A stretch of DNA of 64,000 bases from Callorhinchus milii (GCF_018977255.1 NW_024704742.1:93994001-94058000), one strand, 5' to 3'. Positions 7,693 to 63,880 are shown, counted from the first letter of the stretch. Notes: generated by a model from the sequence alone, not told the origin. Made by a program: numbers and translations.

Positions 7693-7797
7693 ATCTTACT
7701 GCGGAGCCTGACTGACGTTGATGATGATGGAGTGAGAAGCTTTATCCAGACCTTACATTACCCTGAGAAGGAATACCATTCTAAACTGCTGAGAAAT
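7693..7797 (+). CDS. FANCC: FANCC exon (human exon 5 equivalent), ILLRSLTDVDDDGVRSFIQTLHYPEKEYHSKLLRN
   Basis: AG at 7691-7692 and GTAAGT at 7798; 105 nt, phase 0/0. Resembles human ...[23 protein letters not shown] (recalled). The acceptor is atypically A-rich. Confidence 0.88.
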
Positions 7798-44830: not shown

Positions 44831-47800
44831 AAAGCAGACAACTATATAAAAGATAACGGTTGAAGGAGTATGGGGGTAGGGCAGAGTAGTGTGATTTCTC
44901 CGTGCGCTGATGCAGACCTGAGGACCAAATGGACTCTTTCTGTGCTATACATTTCTATGATTCTAAGTGTGTGTTGGTTTTACACGCTGAGTCCCAATCC
45001 TGTCCTGGAATCCCCTACAGGCAGAAAAGGCTTTTCGTAATTCTTTCAAACCCTTTCATTACCCTAAACACCTCTATTATCTTAAATTTCTCCTATCAAA
45101 TCACTAATCACCTCTATTATATGATATTCTTTGTGCAAAGTCATCAAAATTATCCATCTTTTCCTGACTTTTTCTGGCAGTGCTTGGCCCATTCTTATAT
45201 TGGAGCATACACTCAGGGAATTCCTCTAGATAAAATTGATTTGGGTTCCTTTGAAACTTCGTACTTTAGTATGAAGCCTCTCAATATTGGCTCGCAGTAA
45301 ATTTTTAACAATGCTGATTCCTGTTCCGAATGCTTTTATTGCCATTCAGGAGTTGGGATGTAGATTGCCCTGCCAAGTAAGGTGGTAGACGTAGAGTCCA
45401 TTGTGAATTTGAAGAGGGAAGTAGACAGGTATATGAAAGAAAAGCACTTGGAGGGGTACAAGGATAGAACAGCACAGTGGGATTGAAAGGACAGCTTTCT
45501 GAGAGCCAGTGTGGGCCCGATGGGCTGAATGGTCTTCTTCTCCACTTAAATTTTTATTATCTACTTTTCTGATCTGATCCCAATCTCATAAATTAATTGC
45601 ATTATGATTGCAGCAGAATTCCTGCTCCTTAGCTGGGCCTTTGTCACGCTATAATCCTGCATTGTTTGTGGGCTGGGCTGATTAACTTACCTTTTTAATA
45701 TTGTTCCATGTGTCGTCACAGTGTTCTATGGAGAACAATTCCATGTGCTCTGATTTTAGATGCATCTGATATCAAGGAACAAATGCACATTAAATGTAAA
45801 GGCTATTGCATATAGTTTATACTCTCCTATAACGTATATCTGCATTTCAGTCCCAGTTCATCGTGTAAAATGGGTGCAAAACATACGCAAAGATCATAGA
45901 ACCTAAAGTCTCATTTCCAAATGACACAAGTAACTGTCTTAGAAACTAAAATAGGAAAAAAACAGGAGGAGGCCATTTAGCTCAACAAGTCTATTCCACT
46001 AGTTTGCTAGATTTTGGAAAATCTTTTAATCAAGAGCAACAGTAGATTTGTATAGCACCCGTTACATAGGGTAGCATCTCGGAGTGCTGTACAAGGATAG
46101 GGTGGACATCGAGCAAGGAGGAGGGGGAAGTGTTCATAGGTAGTTTGAAGAAGTCGGATTTGAAGCAGGATTTAAGAAAGAAAGACATTGGGAGAGATGG
46201 AATGGCAGAGGAAGGGAGTTTCAAAGATTAGGGGCATAGGAACAAGGGTTGGCCACCGATTGTAGCACAAAGATGCACATCCATCCCTATTGATTCTGCT
46301 TCTTTGTCTTTCTGGGGCAGAGCACTCCAGATCTTCACAACTCTGTGAAGACATGTTACCTGACCTCAGTTCTAACTGCGTAGATTGGCAAATAGAAAGC
46401 TAGTACTGTCTGCACATCAGCCAAACAATACTTCCTTTCAATGCAAGATGCGTGAGGTGACAGATAAATCATGGCGTCATGATTTCCTGAGACAAGTGAA
46501 GCTCAGATAGCGTTTATGTGAAGAAAACTGGATAGACCTAAAAACTGCCTGTGTGCAAGCAAGACAAATTATATCTTCCTCTGCCTCCCTCCTCTCACTC
46601 CAGCTCCATGTTAAATTTATTTCTGTAAGGCTCAGTGAAACAATTGCTCTGCTATATCTATCTGTGTTAATTTGTGGCTAAATTACTTTCTTCACTGTCT
46701 ATTCCTCTGAAGTGTCCCAAATCGATAGTAATCAAGCTAAACAAAAGGAGGGCATTTAAACGAAAATAAAGGAAACGATTATAGTACATTGAAACGGAGA
46801 CAGTGATCTATGGTTTGATGGTACATTTAGCTGAATGGTTGATTTTATTTATTGCTATCAGATAAATTACACTATTCAGAACTTGTTCTTATAATCCCTT
46901 TGTCTTGGCTTCAGGCTGTATTTCCTTCAGTGTGTAAATCATCAGAGTCTGTCCTAGTCCTAGTTTTTTTTGTTTGAAACTCTACAGCAATTTGTACATT
47001 GCACAGGCATACTACAATTCTTGCACTGTGCAAACTATTTTATCACTCCCTCCTTCCAGCATATGCATATTGTGCAAACACTTTAAATTACATGTGAAAA
47101 AAAAGTCGGGTTTTTTTTCAAAAAGGTTCCAATTAAAATTAGTTTTTTTAAAAAATTAAATTAAATGTATGGAACAGACTCCCAAGGAGATGGTGGAAGC
47201 AGAAAGTGCTGATTCTTTCAAAAGCAAATTAGATAGATTTATTTTCAGAAATAATATCGTGGGATACAGAAAATAGTTTGGGACATGACATGTGCATGCG
47301 ACTGCCAGGATGGAAGGCAAACTGAAGGCAAATATGGGCCTTGGTCTTCTTATGTTCTTATGTACNAAAAATGCAAATTAAAAAAATAAATTGGCATTCG
47401 AGGCTGCAGCAAAAGTCAACCAAATTGATAACTGATTAGGCACACCAGTTATAGTGAGGAACTACACTACAGAAGGGAGAGCTGTTGGGAGGTTTCATTT
47501 ACATATTGAGGATCCTGAATGTCACAGATAAACTGGTGCTGCAGAATATGTTTAACATAGTCACAAACGCTGCTGCAATAGGAGTAATGGTTCAAGCTCA
47601 CAAGAGCGAAGGTGAACAGTTTTGATTGAACTACTTTACCCAGAGAATATGTGGAATAGAGTGTACTGGGATGTAAGTTGGTACATCAGGTCAGCATATT
47701 CAAGAGGAATAACTATTTGGCAAACAAATTAATTGAAGGCACACGAGAGAGAAGTGTAGTATTTTTTTAAATTATGTTTTCTGACCCTGCACATCCCTAT

Positions 47801-47849
47801 ATAATACCCGGTATCAGCTCCAGTGCTTAGATCGAGTCCTGAACGAGAG

Positions 47850-48734
47850 AAAACTTTCTTCAGCTCAATGTGCGCAAAACTGAGGCCCTCCTGATTGGCT
47901 CATGTCAGCGCCTCCGCACCTCAGGCGCTGACAGCATCAACATCCAAGGCTGCACTCTCCACCTCTCAAAACCAGTCAGGAACCTCGGCGTTCTGTTCGA
48001 CCCTGAGCTGTCCTTTCTTCCCCACGTCCGCGCCACAACTGGCACCACCTTCCACCACCTCCGGAACATCGGCAGACGACGGCACTACCTCACCCCACAC
48101 GCTGCTGAAACCCTGGTTCACGCCTTTATCACCTCAAGGCTGGACTATGGGAACTCTCTCCTCGCCGGCCTTCCCACCACCTCCCTCCACAAGCTGCAGG
48201 TCATTCAGAACTCTGCAGCTCGTGTACTGTCCCGCACCAGGACCACATCACTCCCACCCTCGCTCACCTCCACTGGCTCCCCATCCCCCAGAGGTTCGAA
48301 TTCAAGATCCTCATCCTCACCTACAAGGCCATTCACGGCCTTGCTCCCTCCTACCTCTCCAACCTACTATCCCCCTACCTACCTGCCCGTACCCTCTGTT
48401 CCTCTGGCTCCAGTCTGCTCCACATCCCCCGCCCCAACCGCCCTACCATCGGTGGTCGGGCCTTCAGCCTCTCAGCCCCCAGGCTCTGGAACTCCATCCC
48501 CCAGTGCCTTCGCCGCTTCCTCCCTTTCCTCTTTCAAGGCTGGTCTCAAGACCTTTCTCTTCAACCGTGCCTTCAGCTCCCCTCTCAACTCTCTACCCCC
48601 TCCTCGCTCCCTCCCTTCCCTCACCCTGACCATTTCCCCCCAATGCTCGGGTCCCGACCCAACTGTCCAGCGCCTTGGGACGTCCTCCCGATGTGAAAGG
48701 TGCTCTATAAATGCAATCTTGTTGTTGTTGTTGT
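47850..48734 (+). mobile_element. Young L2 LINE 3' ~880 bp (ORF2 C-terminus, frameshifted)
   Basis: [46 protein letters not shown]; intact tail plus (ttg)n. Confidence 0.95.
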
Positions 48735-49709
48735 AGATCACTTTGATGATAGCGAATTATCACAGGTTGGGAGACGGGAAAAGTTCAGCATCATCTGGGT
48801 ATTGTTGTATTGAACCAAAAATAATGTTCTGTTAATGAAAATATCCACTATTTTGATGCATTTAATCTCCAGTTATTGCAAAATAAGTTAATAAGTTATT
48901 GCAAAGATAACAATTTGCAAAAAAAAGTCTTTATAGAGGATCAGATTCACTGATTGAAGGGCAATTGAAGGGCTGACCTTTGAACAGCCATACGCCAAAT
49001 GAAAACTTTTGATTTGTTTGCATGAGAAATGCTTTTGGAAGTCTCAGTGTCTGTGCTGTCAGGGAAGGTGGGAGGGGGTGGACGTGTGAGGGATTAAATA
49101 CACTTAAGTGCTAGACTGGTGGCTTGGACAAGAAACATTGAACAGGGTCAGAGAGGAGACCAGACCGACATACAATAAAATTGGGCGACAGTGTTTTAAT
49201 ACATGTGCAGTTTGGCATATTGTATTGTATATGTTCTCCTTTTAAAGTTGCGCTCCCCATATTGGCTGACAGGCATGCCATGAAAAGCGACATTGCACAA
49301 TGAGTTGAGAGTCTTCGGCACAGTATGAAAAGCTTTTCAACATGTAAGGCTTTTTTGGATCGATGAGGTGGTTGTCTTAGAAATGTGTAGGTTAATCTAT
49401 GTTTGCATTTGACCATGGGAGGCAGCAATTGGAGATCGAATATTTTGCCTCATGGGGTAAATGAAAGAATTGAGTAATTCCTTGTTGCAGTTATACAAGC
49501 CCAATATTTTTGTGGAAGTGCATTGTGTGAAGATTAGTTACCTCCCTTAGCCAGAGAATACACAAGAGGACAAGAGAGAGGGGAGATCAGGGGATATAAA
49601 TTATAGAATTAAGAATTAATATTTAAGTATAATTGAATAAGAAAATGCTTTGTTGAATTGTTTTCTAAATATGTCTCTGTTTTGTCCATTTTTAAAATAC
49701 TTTCTGCAG

Positions 49710-55373: not shown

Positions 55374-55455
55374 CTTTTCCAAAAGTATTGATCATTATAG
55401 TCTACTGTCATGTCCTCCCAACCCCCCCCACCCCCACCGCCCCATCCTCCCTCAG

Positions 55456-55659
55456 GCAGATGTGAAGCTGCTGTATGACCATCTAAAGGTGCTTGTCAAT
55501 GCGACCCACTTGAATCTCGAGGACCTGCAAACTGCTTTAACTGCGAGGCACCTCAGCACAGAGCAAAGTCCTCTGAAAGACATGACCAATCACCTTATTA
55601 TGAGCTTTCTGCTGTGTTCTGCTGGCGGCCATGGAATAGCTAAGGAATCTGTGCAACTT
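55456..55659 (+). CDS. FANCC: FANCC exon (human exon 14 equivalent), ADVKLLYDHLKVL...EDLQTA...NHLIMSFLLCSAGGHGIAKESVQL
   Basis: C-rich tract plus ctcag; CTT|GTAAGT donor; 204 nt as in human. DLQT and HLxxxFLLxxxGGHxIA are conserved. Confidence 0.96.
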
Positions 55660-57617
55660 GTAAGTACTCGGAAATGTGATCCGCTGTGATTTGTGAACGA
55701 CAATAAGTTATCATTGTCCTTTGTTGATTGCCATAATCTGGTCTCTTCATTTCACTGCCTTATGTTCTTGTTGGTAGGTTTTTACTAAAACAGCACCGAT
55801 GACTTTGATTGAAGGTTCTGGGTTTACTGAGAGTGGCATTGCAGGTGCCAGATGTACAAATCCAGGGAGAATAAAGCGTAAAATGGACATTAATTTAGCT
55901 CCGTTTCATCAGCGATCGAATGACCAGCAATTGAATAACCATTTCAAATCCAGTGCCCTAGGACTGCATTCAGCACTCGATATTCAGATGACAACATTTG
56001 AAGTGACTGAATGGGTAGAATTTAACACCCATTGTGTAGCTTCACTGGCCAGTGATCATGTGTAGAAAATATTGTTAACATTCTGGAGTGTTTTGCTGAT
56101 ATATGATCTATTATGGCTGCGTACTGTGTACATGAAGAAGTACGCAAGTCCACATTATACCCAAGCTAGTGTAATATTGAGGAGCACTATAAAAGGTATG
56201 GTATACCTGTGTACATTAAGTACCTGTTTGGACCAGTGTAATGTGACAAAGTGCTTTGAAACTGAGGTGTCCGTTGGATAGCAGATCTAGAAGCTTACCA
56301 GGACTATGTCTTACAGAATGCAAGAGGGCCTCCACACCTCGTAACTTCCTGGAGCACTCCAGAGGAACAGTAGATGAATGATGTTCTCATCACCTATCAT
56401 TGTTGGTTTACAAAGGTCCTGATCACCAGTAGGAAAAACTGCGAGCTTCAGTTGCTCAAGCTTTTAAAGTTGTAGAAATGTCAAGGAATTCAATTTCCCA
56501 CCTTTTAGCTGGGTTACTATTCAGAACATGTTGAGGTTCTGTTGGAGGCAAATAAAATATTTAGCAGAGCAGGTTTAGAATGAAATAGTTGAGTGACTGC
56601 AAATCAGAATGACTACACTTGATCCTTGTTACAAGTTCTGAAAAAACAAGTGCTTTGCAGTTTTCCTTTGCAATAAACAGCAAATCCACACAGCATAAGG
56701 AATATGCTGTACATGGAGCATTTATGCAGGTAATCCATCATTGAGAGAAACGCGCTTTACTGCCTTGTTTTCTGGATTTTAAATAATCCTTTGTTGTTTT
56801 AGAGTTTCAAGCTTCAAAAACATTCCACAACTTGCATCGGCATTTTTCTTGTCATGTTTGATTCAAAGAACACAGAGAATTTCAAAAACTATGTCAGAGC
56901 TGGCAACTCTGAAATTAACCGTTTGAAGCACCTTCAGGTAAAACTAATAGTCCCTGAGGGCAGTATGTAGTGTCTTTGAGGTCACTAACAAACCTAGAAG
57001 TGATGCTAGATGGGACCAAAAGCCACTGATCCACAGCAGTAGTTGGGTAGGCCAATGGTATATATACCTGCCTGGTTCTGTTACTGCCTGGATCTTACAT
57101 TAATCGCAGGGATAAACACTACACATTACAATCTTGGATTTTTGCTTCTAAATATGGAGCTGCCTGGAAGATCTACAAATGTACATAAGGATGGAAAAGT
57201 CACACCTGAAACATTTGAGTTCAGGATGTGACTCGCTGGCTGGTAGTCTCAGAGAGCTAGTGCAGAATTAGGTCTAACATGGTCTTGTGTGTGTGCAATA
57301 TTTTTCCCTTCCTCACCTATCTCAAAATAATAATATGTTTACATTTTTAAATGGCTGTAGAGTGAATATTAACATTTGCTTCAGTTAAGACTTTTTTGTG
57401 GAGTCTATTAATGGTACAAAGTTGTGTCTTATTGGGGTTATAATAGTTGTAAGCAAATAAAAATGCACAATACTTTTTAAATTATATTTTCAATAATTCT
57501 TTTTATATTAAGTTCTGTAAGTTAAGGAACTCTCATATTGCTAAAGCATTTAAATAGGGGTGATGTGTTTTTGTCTCTCTTCAAATATCCACATTTCTGT
57601 GCCCTCTTTGTTGCAGT

Positions 57618-57671
57618 CTTTGGGACGTCCTCCTGACGTGAAAGGCGCTATACAAATGTGATTTGTTGTTG
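57618..57671 (+). mobile_element. Solo L2 3' tail inserted in the FANCC last-exon acceptor
   Basis: ttgggacgtcctcctgacgtgaaaggcgctatacaaatg...(ttg)n between 10-bp direct repeats TTGTTGCAGT. Confidence 0.9.
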
Positions 57672-57680
57672 TTGTTGCAG

Positions 57681-57890
57681 TTGACTCTAACTGGAGATGC
57701 TGCTGATGGAGTTTTTGAGCTACTGGGTAGTATTGCCCACAGACAAAACAAGCAACGGCACAAAGATTCCACAGATTATCAGTCTCAGATGACCATCAAA
57801 CTTCTGCAAGAAGTTCTGTCAGAAACCCAACCCAGGACAGTGCAACCAACACACACCCCACTGAAAGGTGTATTTCACTCATTCCAGTAA
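57681..57890 (+). CDS. FANCC: FANCC terminal coding exon (human exon 15 equivalent), LTLTGDAADGVFELLGSIAHRQNK...MTIKLLQEVLSETQPRTVQPTHTPLKGVFHSFQ*
   Basis: gttgcag acceptor, phase 0, open to TAA at 57888-57890. Aligns with human [21 protein letters not shown]...LARELLKEL. Confidence 0.88.
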   Translation: MTLTGDAADGVFELLGSIAHRQNKQRHKDSTDYQSQMTIKLLQEVLSETQPRTVQPTHTPLKGVFHSFQ

Positions 57891-58174
57891 TTATGTCTAG
57901 TTGATTGAAAGTTGTATTTGTTTATATAATAGATCGATAGTTTAAACAATTGTTTTTTCACATTTATTTTTCTAATATTTTGACTGCAAACATTGTGTTG
58001 TAAAAACCCTGTTAATGGATCCGTTTTTTTTAAAAATCAGGAAATTATAAGCAGCAAAACTCTGTATAACACCAGGCACAGGATTCTCTGCCTTATTCTG
58101 TATGTTAGTTGGTGATAAGTGTATTGCAGTCTTTAAATGTCTTAGTTCTGAACTTGTAGCAGAGTGAGCAGTTA

Positions 58175-58180
58175 AATAAA
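58175..58180 (+). promoter_or_regulatory. Candidate FANCC polyadenylation signal AATAAA
   Basis: First AATAAA after the stop (about 285 nt downstream), followed by a GT-rich element (gattgtgttgtcactgtcttt). Confidence 0.55.
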
Positions 58181-58311
58181 AATAATAATGCTGCAGATTG
58201 TGTTGTCACTGTCTTTATCTTACTATTAGAGCAACTGGAGAATGATGCTTGCCCACAATTAACCAGGTGTATAGGGAATGTGATATGGAAGTGCGAGATT
58301 CATGTGTTGCA

Positions 58312-58689
58312 ATAATAATAATAATAATCCTTGCATTTGATACAGAGCTTTTCACGTCTTCTAGACGTCTCAAAGAGCTTCACGGAATATGCTGTAAAGT
58401 GAATTGACTGTATATTTGTGGGCGAAACTCGGCAACCAATTGCGCACAACAACAAGATTCCATTTATAGAGCGCCTTTCACGTCGGGAGGACGTCCCAAT
58501 TGTGCACAGCAGTGTCCCACAAACAGTCGTGGATTGAAAATTACCAATTTATTATTATTTTGTTTTTTGGAGGGAATATTATTAGGTGTTTGGAGTAAAG
58601 AAACTTGCCCAAGGTTTCCCCTGCCTGGAATTGAACCCAGGTGCCTCGCTTGCAAGGCGAGTGCTCTAACTACTGAGCTACAGGACTCC
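58312..58689 (-). mobile_element. Young SINE with a nested 47-nt L2 tail (58449-58495)
   Basis: SINE interrupted between 13-bp repeats ccaattg(c/t)gcaca. Confidence 0.9.
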
Positions 58690-61727: not shown

Positions 61728-63880
61728 CAACAACAACAAAACTACATTTGTATAGCCCCTCTCACATCAGGAAGACGTCCCAAGGTGCTGGACAGTCAAT
61801 GTTTCGGACCCGAGCTGGGGAGTCGGGATTGAGGAGGGTGGAGGGCAGCGGGGAAGCAGGATGATCGAAAGCAAGGTCGAAGAGGATGGTCTTGAGATGG
61901 TTCTTGAAGAAGGCAAGGGAGTGGGCGAGGCAGAGGGACTGCGGAATGGAGTTCCAGAGGGTGGGGGCAGAGTGCCAGAAGGCCCGCTTGCCAATGGTAG
62001 GGTGGGCAAGGCGGGGAACGTAAAGCAGGCTGGAGCCCACTCAGCAGCGGGAGTGAGCAGGATGGTAGGGGGTTAGGAGGTCGCAGAGGTAGGGAGAGCA
62101 AGATCATGAAGGGCTTTGAGAGTGAAGACCAGGATCTTGAACTGTATCCTCTGTGGGATGGGAAGTCAGTGGAGTCAGGCGACGATGGGGGTGATAGGGT
62201 CACGGAGCCTGGTGCTGGAGAGGACACGGGCTGCAGAGTTCTGAATGATCTGCGGCCTATGGAGGGAGGAGTTGGGGAGGCTAACAAGCAAGGAGTTTGC
62301 ATAGTCAAGGCTGGATGTAATGAATGAGGGTGGATGTATGAGGGTTTTGGCGGCCTGTGGTGTGAGACAGTAGCAGAGCCGGGCAACGTTGCGGAGGTGG
62401 GGGAAGGCAGAACGGGTCATGGCGCAGATGAGGGGTAGAAAGGATAGTTGAGGGTCAAACAAGACCCCAAGGTTCCAGACTGGCTTAGAAAAGTGGAGTG
62501 TGTATCCATGGATGGTGATGCTGTCAGCGCCTGAGGTGAGGAGGCACTGACAGGAGCCAATCAGGAGAGCCTCGGTCTTGTTGACATTCAACTGAAGAAA
62601 GTTAGCTCTCACCCAGGACTTGATGTCTGACAGACGTTTTGCCAGGACAGCAGTGATCCTGGAGTCAAGAGTGGAGGCAGAAAGGTACAGTTGGGTCTCA
62701 TCCACATACATGTGGAAGTTGACCCCATGTCTGCGGATGATGTCACCAAGAGGGAGCACATAGATATTGAAGAGGAGCGGACTAAGGATAGAGCCCTGAG
62801 GAACACCGTACAAGGCTAGAGGAGAAACCCTTTGTGGAGATGAAGTACAGGTGATGTGAGAGTTACATCTCAACCATTCAAGGATACACTGTGGAGGTTA
62901 AGGTGTGAGACGCGATGGATGAGGATAGAGTGGTCAACAGTGTCGAAGGCAGCAGAGAGGTCAAGGAGGACAAGGAGGCAGAGGGAGCCCTGATCGCAGA
63001 TGGACAGAATGTAATTTGTCAATTTGACCAGGGCTGTTTGATTGGAAGGGTTTATGAAGGGAGTAGCGATAGAGGAAGGAGCGAAACTGGGAAACAACGA
63101 CTTGTTCCAGGACCTTGGAGAGGAAAGGGAGGTTGGAGATGGGGCAGTAGTTTGAGAGCAGGATTGGGTCCATGGAGGGTTTTTTTAAGGATAGGAGTGA
63201 TGACTGTTTTTAAAGGGGTGGGAATGGTACCAGTGGACAGAGAGGTAAATGATGTCTGTGAGTGGAGGGGCAAGGAGGTGGAGCTAGGAGGTAAGGCGAG
63301 GGGTAGGGATGGGGTCGAGGGAGCAGGTGGTCGGTTTCATGAGGGTTATAGTGGTGGTGAGGGAGGAGTGGGAGACAGGTTTGAAGGTGTGGAGGGAAGG
63401 ATTGGTAGGGGCTGGGATGTGAGGGGGAGGGGGTAATAGACGGAAGGGCAGAGGCAGCTGAGCGGACTCCCTTGACTTTGGATTTGAGGAAGTCCAGAAT
63501 TGTCTCGTAGTTGGCATTGGAGGTGAGGATGGGTTAGGCATGACAGGGTGAGTGGAGGAGCTGGTTGATGATGAAGAGGATCCTGGGGTTGTCCTTGGCT
63601 TCCACGTTTGTCTTGGAATAGAACAATGATTTAGTGGAGGCGAGGGCGAAGCAGTAAGATTTGATAAGGTCCAGTCAAACTCCAGATGGACTGTTAAGTT
63701 CAATTTAAGCCAGGTGCGTTCAGCAGCACACACCTGTACTTTAAGGGAGCGGAGGTGGCTGATGTACAATGGAGACTTTCATGAGTAGGGGATGATTCGG
63801 GAAGTGAGGGGAGCAAGGGATTTGAGAGTGGTGGAGAGAGAGCTGGATAAGAGTGACCAAGGAAGATAGGTCATTGTGGG
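61728..63880 (-). mobile_element. L2 LINE, 3' ~2.1 kb, ORF2 RT pseudogene
   Basis: [68 protein letters not shown]; multiple frameshifts; (caa)n tail at 61728. Confidence 0.95.

Follow-up and report, generated by a model that had tools for sequence, protein, structure and literature searches.

The window, as we call the whole stretch of 64,000 nt analyzed here (Callorhinchus milii, GCF_018977255.1 NW_024704742.1:93994001-94058000), carries the FANCC gene, which was identified by a profile match and a colinear C-terminus. Three N letters occur in the window. The penultimate coding exon (55456..55659, + strand) encodes residues 440-507 of the public protein model P0001, is followed by a GT donor after 55659, and matches the Pfam family Fanconi_C with an E value of 4.2e-08 (profile positions 449-515 of 560). 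This exon was also located by tblastn of P0001, and RNA-like contigs end at or join from 55659. The last intron (55660..57680, +) spans 2021 nt with GT..AG borders, and the joint 55659->57681, which skips 2021 nt, is found in two RNA-like runs, X5 and X8. In the last exon (57681..58195, +), positions 57681-57887 encode residues 508-576 and are followed by the stop codon TAA at 57888-90 and an AATAAA signal at 58175-80. The RNA-like contigs end 15 nt past this signal, at 58194 (X5 record 19) and 58195 (X8 record 22).

The last exon by itself gave no Pfam match at E ≤ 1; residues 508-576 of the 576-aa C. milii FANCC align with it at 99-100% identity. Splicing from 55659 to 57681 continues the reading frame as LTLTGDAADGVFELLGSIAHRQNK... 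until TAA 57888-90. The FANCC protein cluster has two members, the second being a 584-aa NCBI/UniRef entry, and both public protein models read ...KESVQL|LTLTGDAADG..., which corresponds to the junction 55659->57681. Human FANCC from solved structures (7kzp_C) aligned with an E value of 2.5e-116 through query residue 533, spanning the junction. A word search with residues 400-576 recovered the protein itself and no relatives. In a MAFFT alignment with 10 FANCC relatives, picked out of 137 found, the junction is gap-free and the conserved K/ELLQE-type end is included, so that the C. milii FANCC end MTIKLLQEVL pairs with the conserved C-terminal helix-like motif. The preliminary description had stated that, of two candidate acceptors at this intron end, only the downstream one yields a FANCC-like C-terminus, and both alignments agree with this.

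The human mutations R548X and L554P, located in the last coding exon of FANCC, have been linked with an early onset of haematological disease and with malformations that are severe (Dong et al., 2015, PMC4657327). These mutations point to the importance of the part encoded after the junction, but they are point mutations and not a splice choice. No truncated form was seen in C. milii among the 15 of 260 joints listed.

Two further observations concern the FANCC coding sequence. The public models P0001 (residue 112) and P0139 (residues 112-120) show an 8-residue difference (EWIQILLRS) at an exon boundary near window position 7708, suggesting alternative or mis-called upstream splice sites. At position 57803, the window has T while both RNA-like runs have C (129.4/129.4 in X5 and 27.5/27.5 in X8). 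At the third codon position, CTT becomes CTC; Leu is retained, making this a synonymous variant between individuals.

The end of the last intron reads ...catttctgtgccctctTTGTTGCAGTct-TTGGGACGTCCTCCTGACGTGAAAGGCGCTATACAAATGTGA-TTTGTTGTTG-TTGTTGCAGT-tgactcta.... The 10-nt sequence TTGTTGCAGT occurs at 57608-57617 and again at 57672-57681, as had been described, and the two copies are separated by 54 nt (57618-57671) ending in TTG repeats. TTGTTGCAGT is found three times in the window versus 0.30 expected, a count reached in 1 of 100 shuffles; the third copy, at 49482, is without repeat context. The upstream copy (57608..57617, +) contains an AG at 57615-16 and represents either the left target-site duplication or the old acceptor; its use was not seen among the 15 of 260 joints listed. 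The downstream copy (57672..57681, +) contains the AG at 57679-80, which is the acceptor in use. The description of two CAG acceptors lying 64 nt apart around a 5′-truncated LINE 3′ tail thus holds. The upstream AG has the better pyrimidine tract: pyrimidines occupy 16 of the 20 nt before the upstream AG versus 13 of 20 before the downstream one (12 T, 1 C, 6 G, 1 A). Translation likewise confirmed that a splice 55659->57617 would read SLGRPPDVKGAIQM and end at a TGA (57659..57661, +), the stop codon of the hypothetical upstream-AG isoform. Sampled words of 57560-58060 are present at 0.93-1.00 in the DNA-sized contig sets of four samples, and therefore the insert is not an assembly artefact. 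RNA folding at 57590-57690 was no better than that of shuffled sequences (z 0.39).

We next consider the identity of the insert. It corresponds to the 3′ tail of a 5′-truncated, putatively L2-type LINE (57618..57677, +), consisting of a 42-nt core followed by TTTG(TTG)4, as judged by nhmmer, by other genome copies, and by the continuity of the same tail with a reverse transcriptase (RT) ORF in the genome copy L037. The terminal TTTG(TTG)4 (57662..57677, +) is the LINE tail repeat, found in the same form in other copies, and at the same time the U-rich tract of the used acceptor. An nhmmer profile built from 23 long copies matched only 57618-57677 at this site (profile positions 141-201 of 203, E 1.3e-23). 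A 24-nt core was matched six times in the window at up to 3 mismatches, versus 0 expected. Whole-genome searches of the 991-Mb genome returned 1657 and 920 first-look candidates, and the 40 scored in each search all had E ≤ 1.2e-16. With its many copies and a terminus made of short repeats instead of poly(A), the tails taking the form TTTG(TTG)n, the family has the traits of a LINE 3′ tail of the kind that partners SINEs in stringent-type pairs, and is estimated from these matches to comprise many hundreds of copies or more.

Among 50 distinct copies compared, 23 have the upstream flank ...CCCTGACTGTCCAGCGCC and sequence beyond it, and the letters CCCTGACTGTCCAGCGCC form the loose-end consensus before 57620 in all four runs. 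In L037, positions 77-1189 constitute a 371-aa open frame that matches Pfam RVT_1 (E 1.4e-15) and runs directly into ...ACTGACTGTCCAGCGCTTTGGGATGTCC... and then the (TTG)n end. Since the RT frame is continuous with the tail in this copy, the stretch in the FANCC intron is the 3′ end of an RT-encoding LINE that has been 5′-truncated. For the same reason, we rejected the possibility that the long tail copies are SINEs, because the open RVT_1 frame of L037 runs straight into flank and tail. Upstream frames of 277 aa and 240 aa also precede the window copies at 48675 and 61783. The end of the frame, FK..LKT.LF..AF, presumably resembles L2 proteins, and an L2-type LINE is plausible, if on indirect grounds. 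Abundant C. milii SINEs (CmiSINEs and SacSINE1-CM) share their tail with the LINE L2-2_CM at a 78.6% match, and the waves of CmiSINE activity were dated by the authors to ~100-220 Ma (Luchetti et al., 2017, PMC5499810).

Other candidate assignments were discarded. An element reaching 5′ to ~57596, which would make the 'native' pyrimidine tract TE-derived, was rejected because the profile alignment stops at 57618 and the 140 nt upstream of the insert show no likeness to the long copies, even though some genome matches reached query positions 7-19. L056 was rejected as the LINE partner, as its endonuclease and RT pieces lie on the other strand and do not end in the tail of the FANCC insert. The FANCC copy keeps all three core CpGs and, over the 42 positions of the core, departs three times from the majority letter of 19 bystander copies, a comparison to be read in light of the fact that the bystander set mixes subfamilies, while the 40 targeted copies were chosen by likeness to the FANCC copy.

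The searches also revealed relatives of the insert within the window and elsewhere. Two 5′-truncated LINE copies with the same tail and long open RT frames (277 and 240 aa) are located in FANCC introns at ~47800-48730 (+) and 61744-62600 (-). A second repeat family with a related core (...GTGAAGCGCTTTGGGACGTCC...AAAAGCGCTATATCAAATGCAAGGA) and an (ATT)n tail occurs at 1935 (-), 36012 (-), 22663 (+) and 58336-58440 of the window and at L037:1240-1300, and is very abundant in all four runs. In L010, L026 and L027 (at ~position 360 each), the tail is followed directly by CAG; the query included CAG, and these cases therefore give no frequency estimate. In L041 (~2551-2600, -), letters coding for an RT motif of the HMYADDTQL type lie only ~20 nt before the tail core, which suggests an internally deleted LINE copy.

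To see which acceptor is used, we turned to the contigs of four runs aligned to 55400-58440 at 80% likeness. At this likeness, thousands of repeat copies align to the insert, and 15 of 260 joints were listed. The RNA nature of runs X5-X12 is a guess made by software and not on record, and the contigs drop rare variants. The joint 55659->57681 is represented by one contig of depth 236 in X5 and one contig of depth 27.5 in X8, the latter with 205 letters on its shorter side; these two RNA-like runs come from two studies. X8 record 22 is a single unbroken contig of 1175 letters spanning 55455-55659 together with 57681-58195. The X5 junction contig has a depth of 236 versus 225 for the upstream exon contig of that run, in which the intron is covered at a depth of 3-6. 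The joint 55659->57617 was found in neither X5 nor X8 among the 15 of 260 joints listed, in contigs that drop rare forms; of the two junctions, only 55659->57681 was present there. Its use in X5, in X8 and in both protein models confirms the earlier proposal that full-length FANCC depends on retroposon-supplied sequence.

The same proposal held that the upstream AG competes and produces, at a biologically meaningful level, a stable truncated FANCC with the TE-encoded tail SLGRPPDVKGAIQM. This idea draws on the better tract at the upstream AG (16/20 vs 13/20), on the frame and stop codon, which are as stated, and on the rule that a stop codon in the last exon should escape nonsense-mediated decay. 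The X5 contigs, moreover, break at both 55659 and 57681. We attribute these breaks to unspliced RNA, given the intron depth of 3-6, although a second form would also fit. Against such an isoform, no corresponding joint was found in X5 or X8 among the 15 of 260 listed, the normal junction is crossed by one unbroken contig in X8, and the depth of the X5 junction contig (236) equals that of the upstream exon (225), leaving the claim unsupported. The word counts point the same way: by arithmetic, the last exon starting at 57681 accounts for 0.74 of the sampled words, and seven of the eight RNA-like runs hold 0.47-0.70 and thus do not exceed this value, whereas X5, the run with intron cover, is the sole one at 0.81. 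In addition, both protein models use 57681, and no YTNAY motif occurs within 80 nt upstream of the upstream AG. We therefore consider a truncated isoform of biological consequence very unlikely. The upstream AG appears to be silent, and a rare or tissue-limited form spliced at 57617 may exist.

The position of branch-point motifs offers an explanation for the choice of the downstream AG. A YTNAY scan of 57500-57681 found three motifs, of which only CTGAC (57633..57637, +) is located within 80 nt upstream of either AG. This candidate branch point lies inside the insert, with its A at 57636, 20 nt past the upstream AG and 44 nt short of G57680. The remaining two motifs precede the upstream AG by 81 and 111 nt and are separated from it by other AGs. 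The sole AG between A57636 and the used AG is at 57643-44, only 7 nt past the A, and an AG 7 nt after the branch-point A is too close to be chosen. TE sequence, delimited by the profile as 57618-57677, precedes the used AG of junction 57681 across the range of both tract and branch point. Since the only consensus branch-point motif near either AG is inside the insert, branch point and U-rich tract probably both come from the inserted sequence.

Alternatively, the used acceptor might still draw on the intron's original branch point, far away and 5′ of 57600, with the insert acting as a passive spacer that gives the U-rich tract only. Vertebrate branch points are often non-consensus, and a TTCAA near 57583 could serve; but its distance to the used AG would be ~97 nt, and two AGs (57615 and 57643) would intervene, contrary to the AG-free zone that usually separates a branch point from the used AG and to the first-AG rule. 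We regard this arrangement as quite improbable compared with a branch point carried by the insert.

How the element arrived may be read from its flanks. The element is flanked by direct repeats, namely the exact 10-nt TTGTTGCAGT. When the 5′ flank was compared with the flank after the tail in 33 truncated copies, a gapped local score of at least 14 was reached by 9 of 33 (3.7 expected) and a score of at least 18 by 4 of 33 (0.56 expected); flank similarity differed from that of mismatched pairings with a Mann-Whitney p of 0.017, or 0.033 without the FANCC copy. Exact-match duplications of 5 nt or more were absent from 22 of the 33 truncated copies. By these comparisons, the truncated copies of the family carry what look like decayed target-site duplications. 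Flank repeats starting with TTG-like letters were found in L013, L021, L028 and L009, the last of which lies inside the tail of another copy. Repeats that start with TTG are to be expected if the nicked target is primed on a (UUG)n tail, a mechanism described for LINEs.

For the FANCC copy, we infer the duplication from the repeat, and some of its letters are ambiguous. The downstream TTGTTG is indistinguishable from the tail, and 3-6 TTG units are common among the copies. The upstream CAGTCT resembles the element's CAG(C/T)GC(C/T) minus one base and may be element sequence or 5′ microhomology. The preliminary description had cautioned that the upstream 'cagt' could partly be such microhomology, and the caution was justified, as the consensus just upstream of 57620 is ...CCAGCGCC or ...CAGTGCT. 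It is accordingly conceivable that no target site was duplicated: the element would be a 64-nt unit CAGTCT...(TTG)5 (57614-57677), the upstream CAG would belong to the LINE, and the 10-nt repeat would be a coincidence of element, tail and native acceptor. The family consensus before TTGGG, ...CCAGCGCC, the variants CAGTGCT and CAGCTCT in L014, L017 and L002 together with the loose ends in all four runs, and the five TTG units, a common tail length, are in its favor. However, the profile alignment stops at 57618 and excludes CAGT, one would have to assume both a deletion of 1 nt and a TTGTTG arising by chance immediately ahead of CAG, and the LINE family does leave flank repeats. We judge a coincidental repeat unlikely and prefer a target-site duplication. 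The 64-nt unit to be removed is identical under both readings, as are the empty site and the pair of acceptors that they predict; the biological conclusion is independent of the choice between them. Under either, the empty site is predicted to read ...CTCTTTGTTGCAG|TTGACT, with ...TTGTTGCAG|T present once. The one relative aligned across the site, organism C (X18 record 10), is filled, and an empty site was not encountered.

This relative also bears on the age of the insertion. Record 10 of organism C (run X18) is a contig of 1855 letters that is colinear with window positions 56326-56896, 57528-57776 and 57849-57955. Across 57528-57776, 247 of its letters align with the 249 nt of the window, with 28 mismatches and 4 gap letters. 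As 247 letters correspond to 249 across this interval, the 64-nt unit is present in organism C. The listed pieces of organism B (X17) cover 55452-55714, 56800-56894 and 57849-57951, none of them over the insert. All 23 differences listed for the 204-nt penultimate exon (11%) are common to organisms B and C, which on this sequence evidence are clearly different species from that of the window. A filled site in a species diverged by ~11% indicates that the insertion predates the split and is old and fixed, which renders unlikely the insertion polymorphism that the preliminary description had envisaged. Because a k-mer contig crosses an element only if its words are unique, the organism C copy has probably diverged from the common words of the family.

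Downstream of the insert, the organism C contig has 68 letters in place of the 72 at window positions 57777-57848, and these did not align at 80% likeness. This part of the exon encodes the C-terminal helix-like motif, and the extreme C-terminus of FANCC may differ in length or frame between species.

Taken together, the explanation that we favor, and hold to be probable, is a LINE insertion into the acceptor followed by use of the downstream CAG. In an ancestor that C. milii shared with one or more other species, target-primed reverse transcription would have placed the 5′-truncated 3′ end of an RT-encoding, L2-type LINE in the acceptor of the last FANCC intron, where the start of the target, TTGTTG, matches the (TTG)n tail of the element. 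The insertion would have duplicated TTGTTGCAGT or, equivalently, added a 64-nt unit with microhomology at both ends. Read 5′ to 3′, the resulting intron end would begin with the former pyrimidine tract and an orphaned CAG; the LINE tail would follow, and a second CAG would adjoin the exon. The second CAG would be spliced because the insert brings the sole consensus branch point (CTGAC, A57636) at a workable 44 nt, and then the U-rich (UUG)5. The orphaned CAG, upstream of A57636 and with no consensus branch point of its own, would be bypassed.

Contributions of TEs to 3′ splice sites are known from other systems. Sela et al., 2007 (PMC2394776) describe a class of TE that 'transforms an existing exon to an alternative 3'ss exon', as well as constitutively spliced TE-derived exons. 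As in these classes, a retroposon beside an exon here gives an AG with its tract (PMC2394776). Unlike them, the FANCC case leaves no TE sequence in the mRNA, and exon boundary and protein are unchanged. FANCC differs from the classes quoted also in that the TE appears to stand in for the intron's own splice signals at a last coding exon that is spliced constitutively, and in that the 15 of 260 joints listed include none at the alternative site.

The insert can be likened to the L2-2_CM tail of the CmiSINEs and SacSINE1-CM, with which it shares the species, a high-copy 3′ tail, a presumed tie to an L2 LINE and a microsatellite-type end (PMC5499810). The CmiSINE waves of ~100-220 Ma would also fit an insert shared between species (PMC5499810). 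In contrast to the CmiSINEs, many of the long copies in the present set carry an open RT frame and represent the 3′ ends of LINEs.

A parallel can further be drawn between FANCC and the exonization of Alu elements: in both, a 3′ splice site takes its tract from the tail repeat of a retroposon, and there are two candidate AGs. In antisense Alu exonization, the poly-U derived from the Alu tail serves as the pyrimidine tract, and two nearby AGs compete. The FANCC element differs in being sense-oriented, in having a UUG-repeat tract and in adding a consensus branch-point motif, and its outcome is not the birth of a cassette exon but a conserved exon that is spliced constitutively. A TE that changes a 3′ splice site or supplies constitutive splice signals is thus a known class, of which FANCC is a further instance with no new mechanism.

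One could go further and imagine the L2-type tail as a portable 3′ splice-site module (CTGAC plus (UUG)n) that homes to TTG-rich pyrimidine tracts via pairing between tail and target during reverse transcription. Acceptor takeover would then be recurrent in holocephalan introns, and the orphaned upstream AGs would form a reservoir of conditional truncated isoforms. This is a speculation to which we give little credence.

At FANCC itself, the signals that the intron once provided for the conserved last coding exon appear to have been taken over by the element long ago. The branch-point motif and U-rich tail that the element brought along would explain how a presumably harmful insertion could be tolerated. 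The locus thus offers a clean, datable case in which a retroposon fragment in the splice acceptor of an essential DNA-repair gene left the protein unchanged and apparently became the signal set of that acceptor, and the insert provides a shared-insertion marker for chimaera phylogeny.
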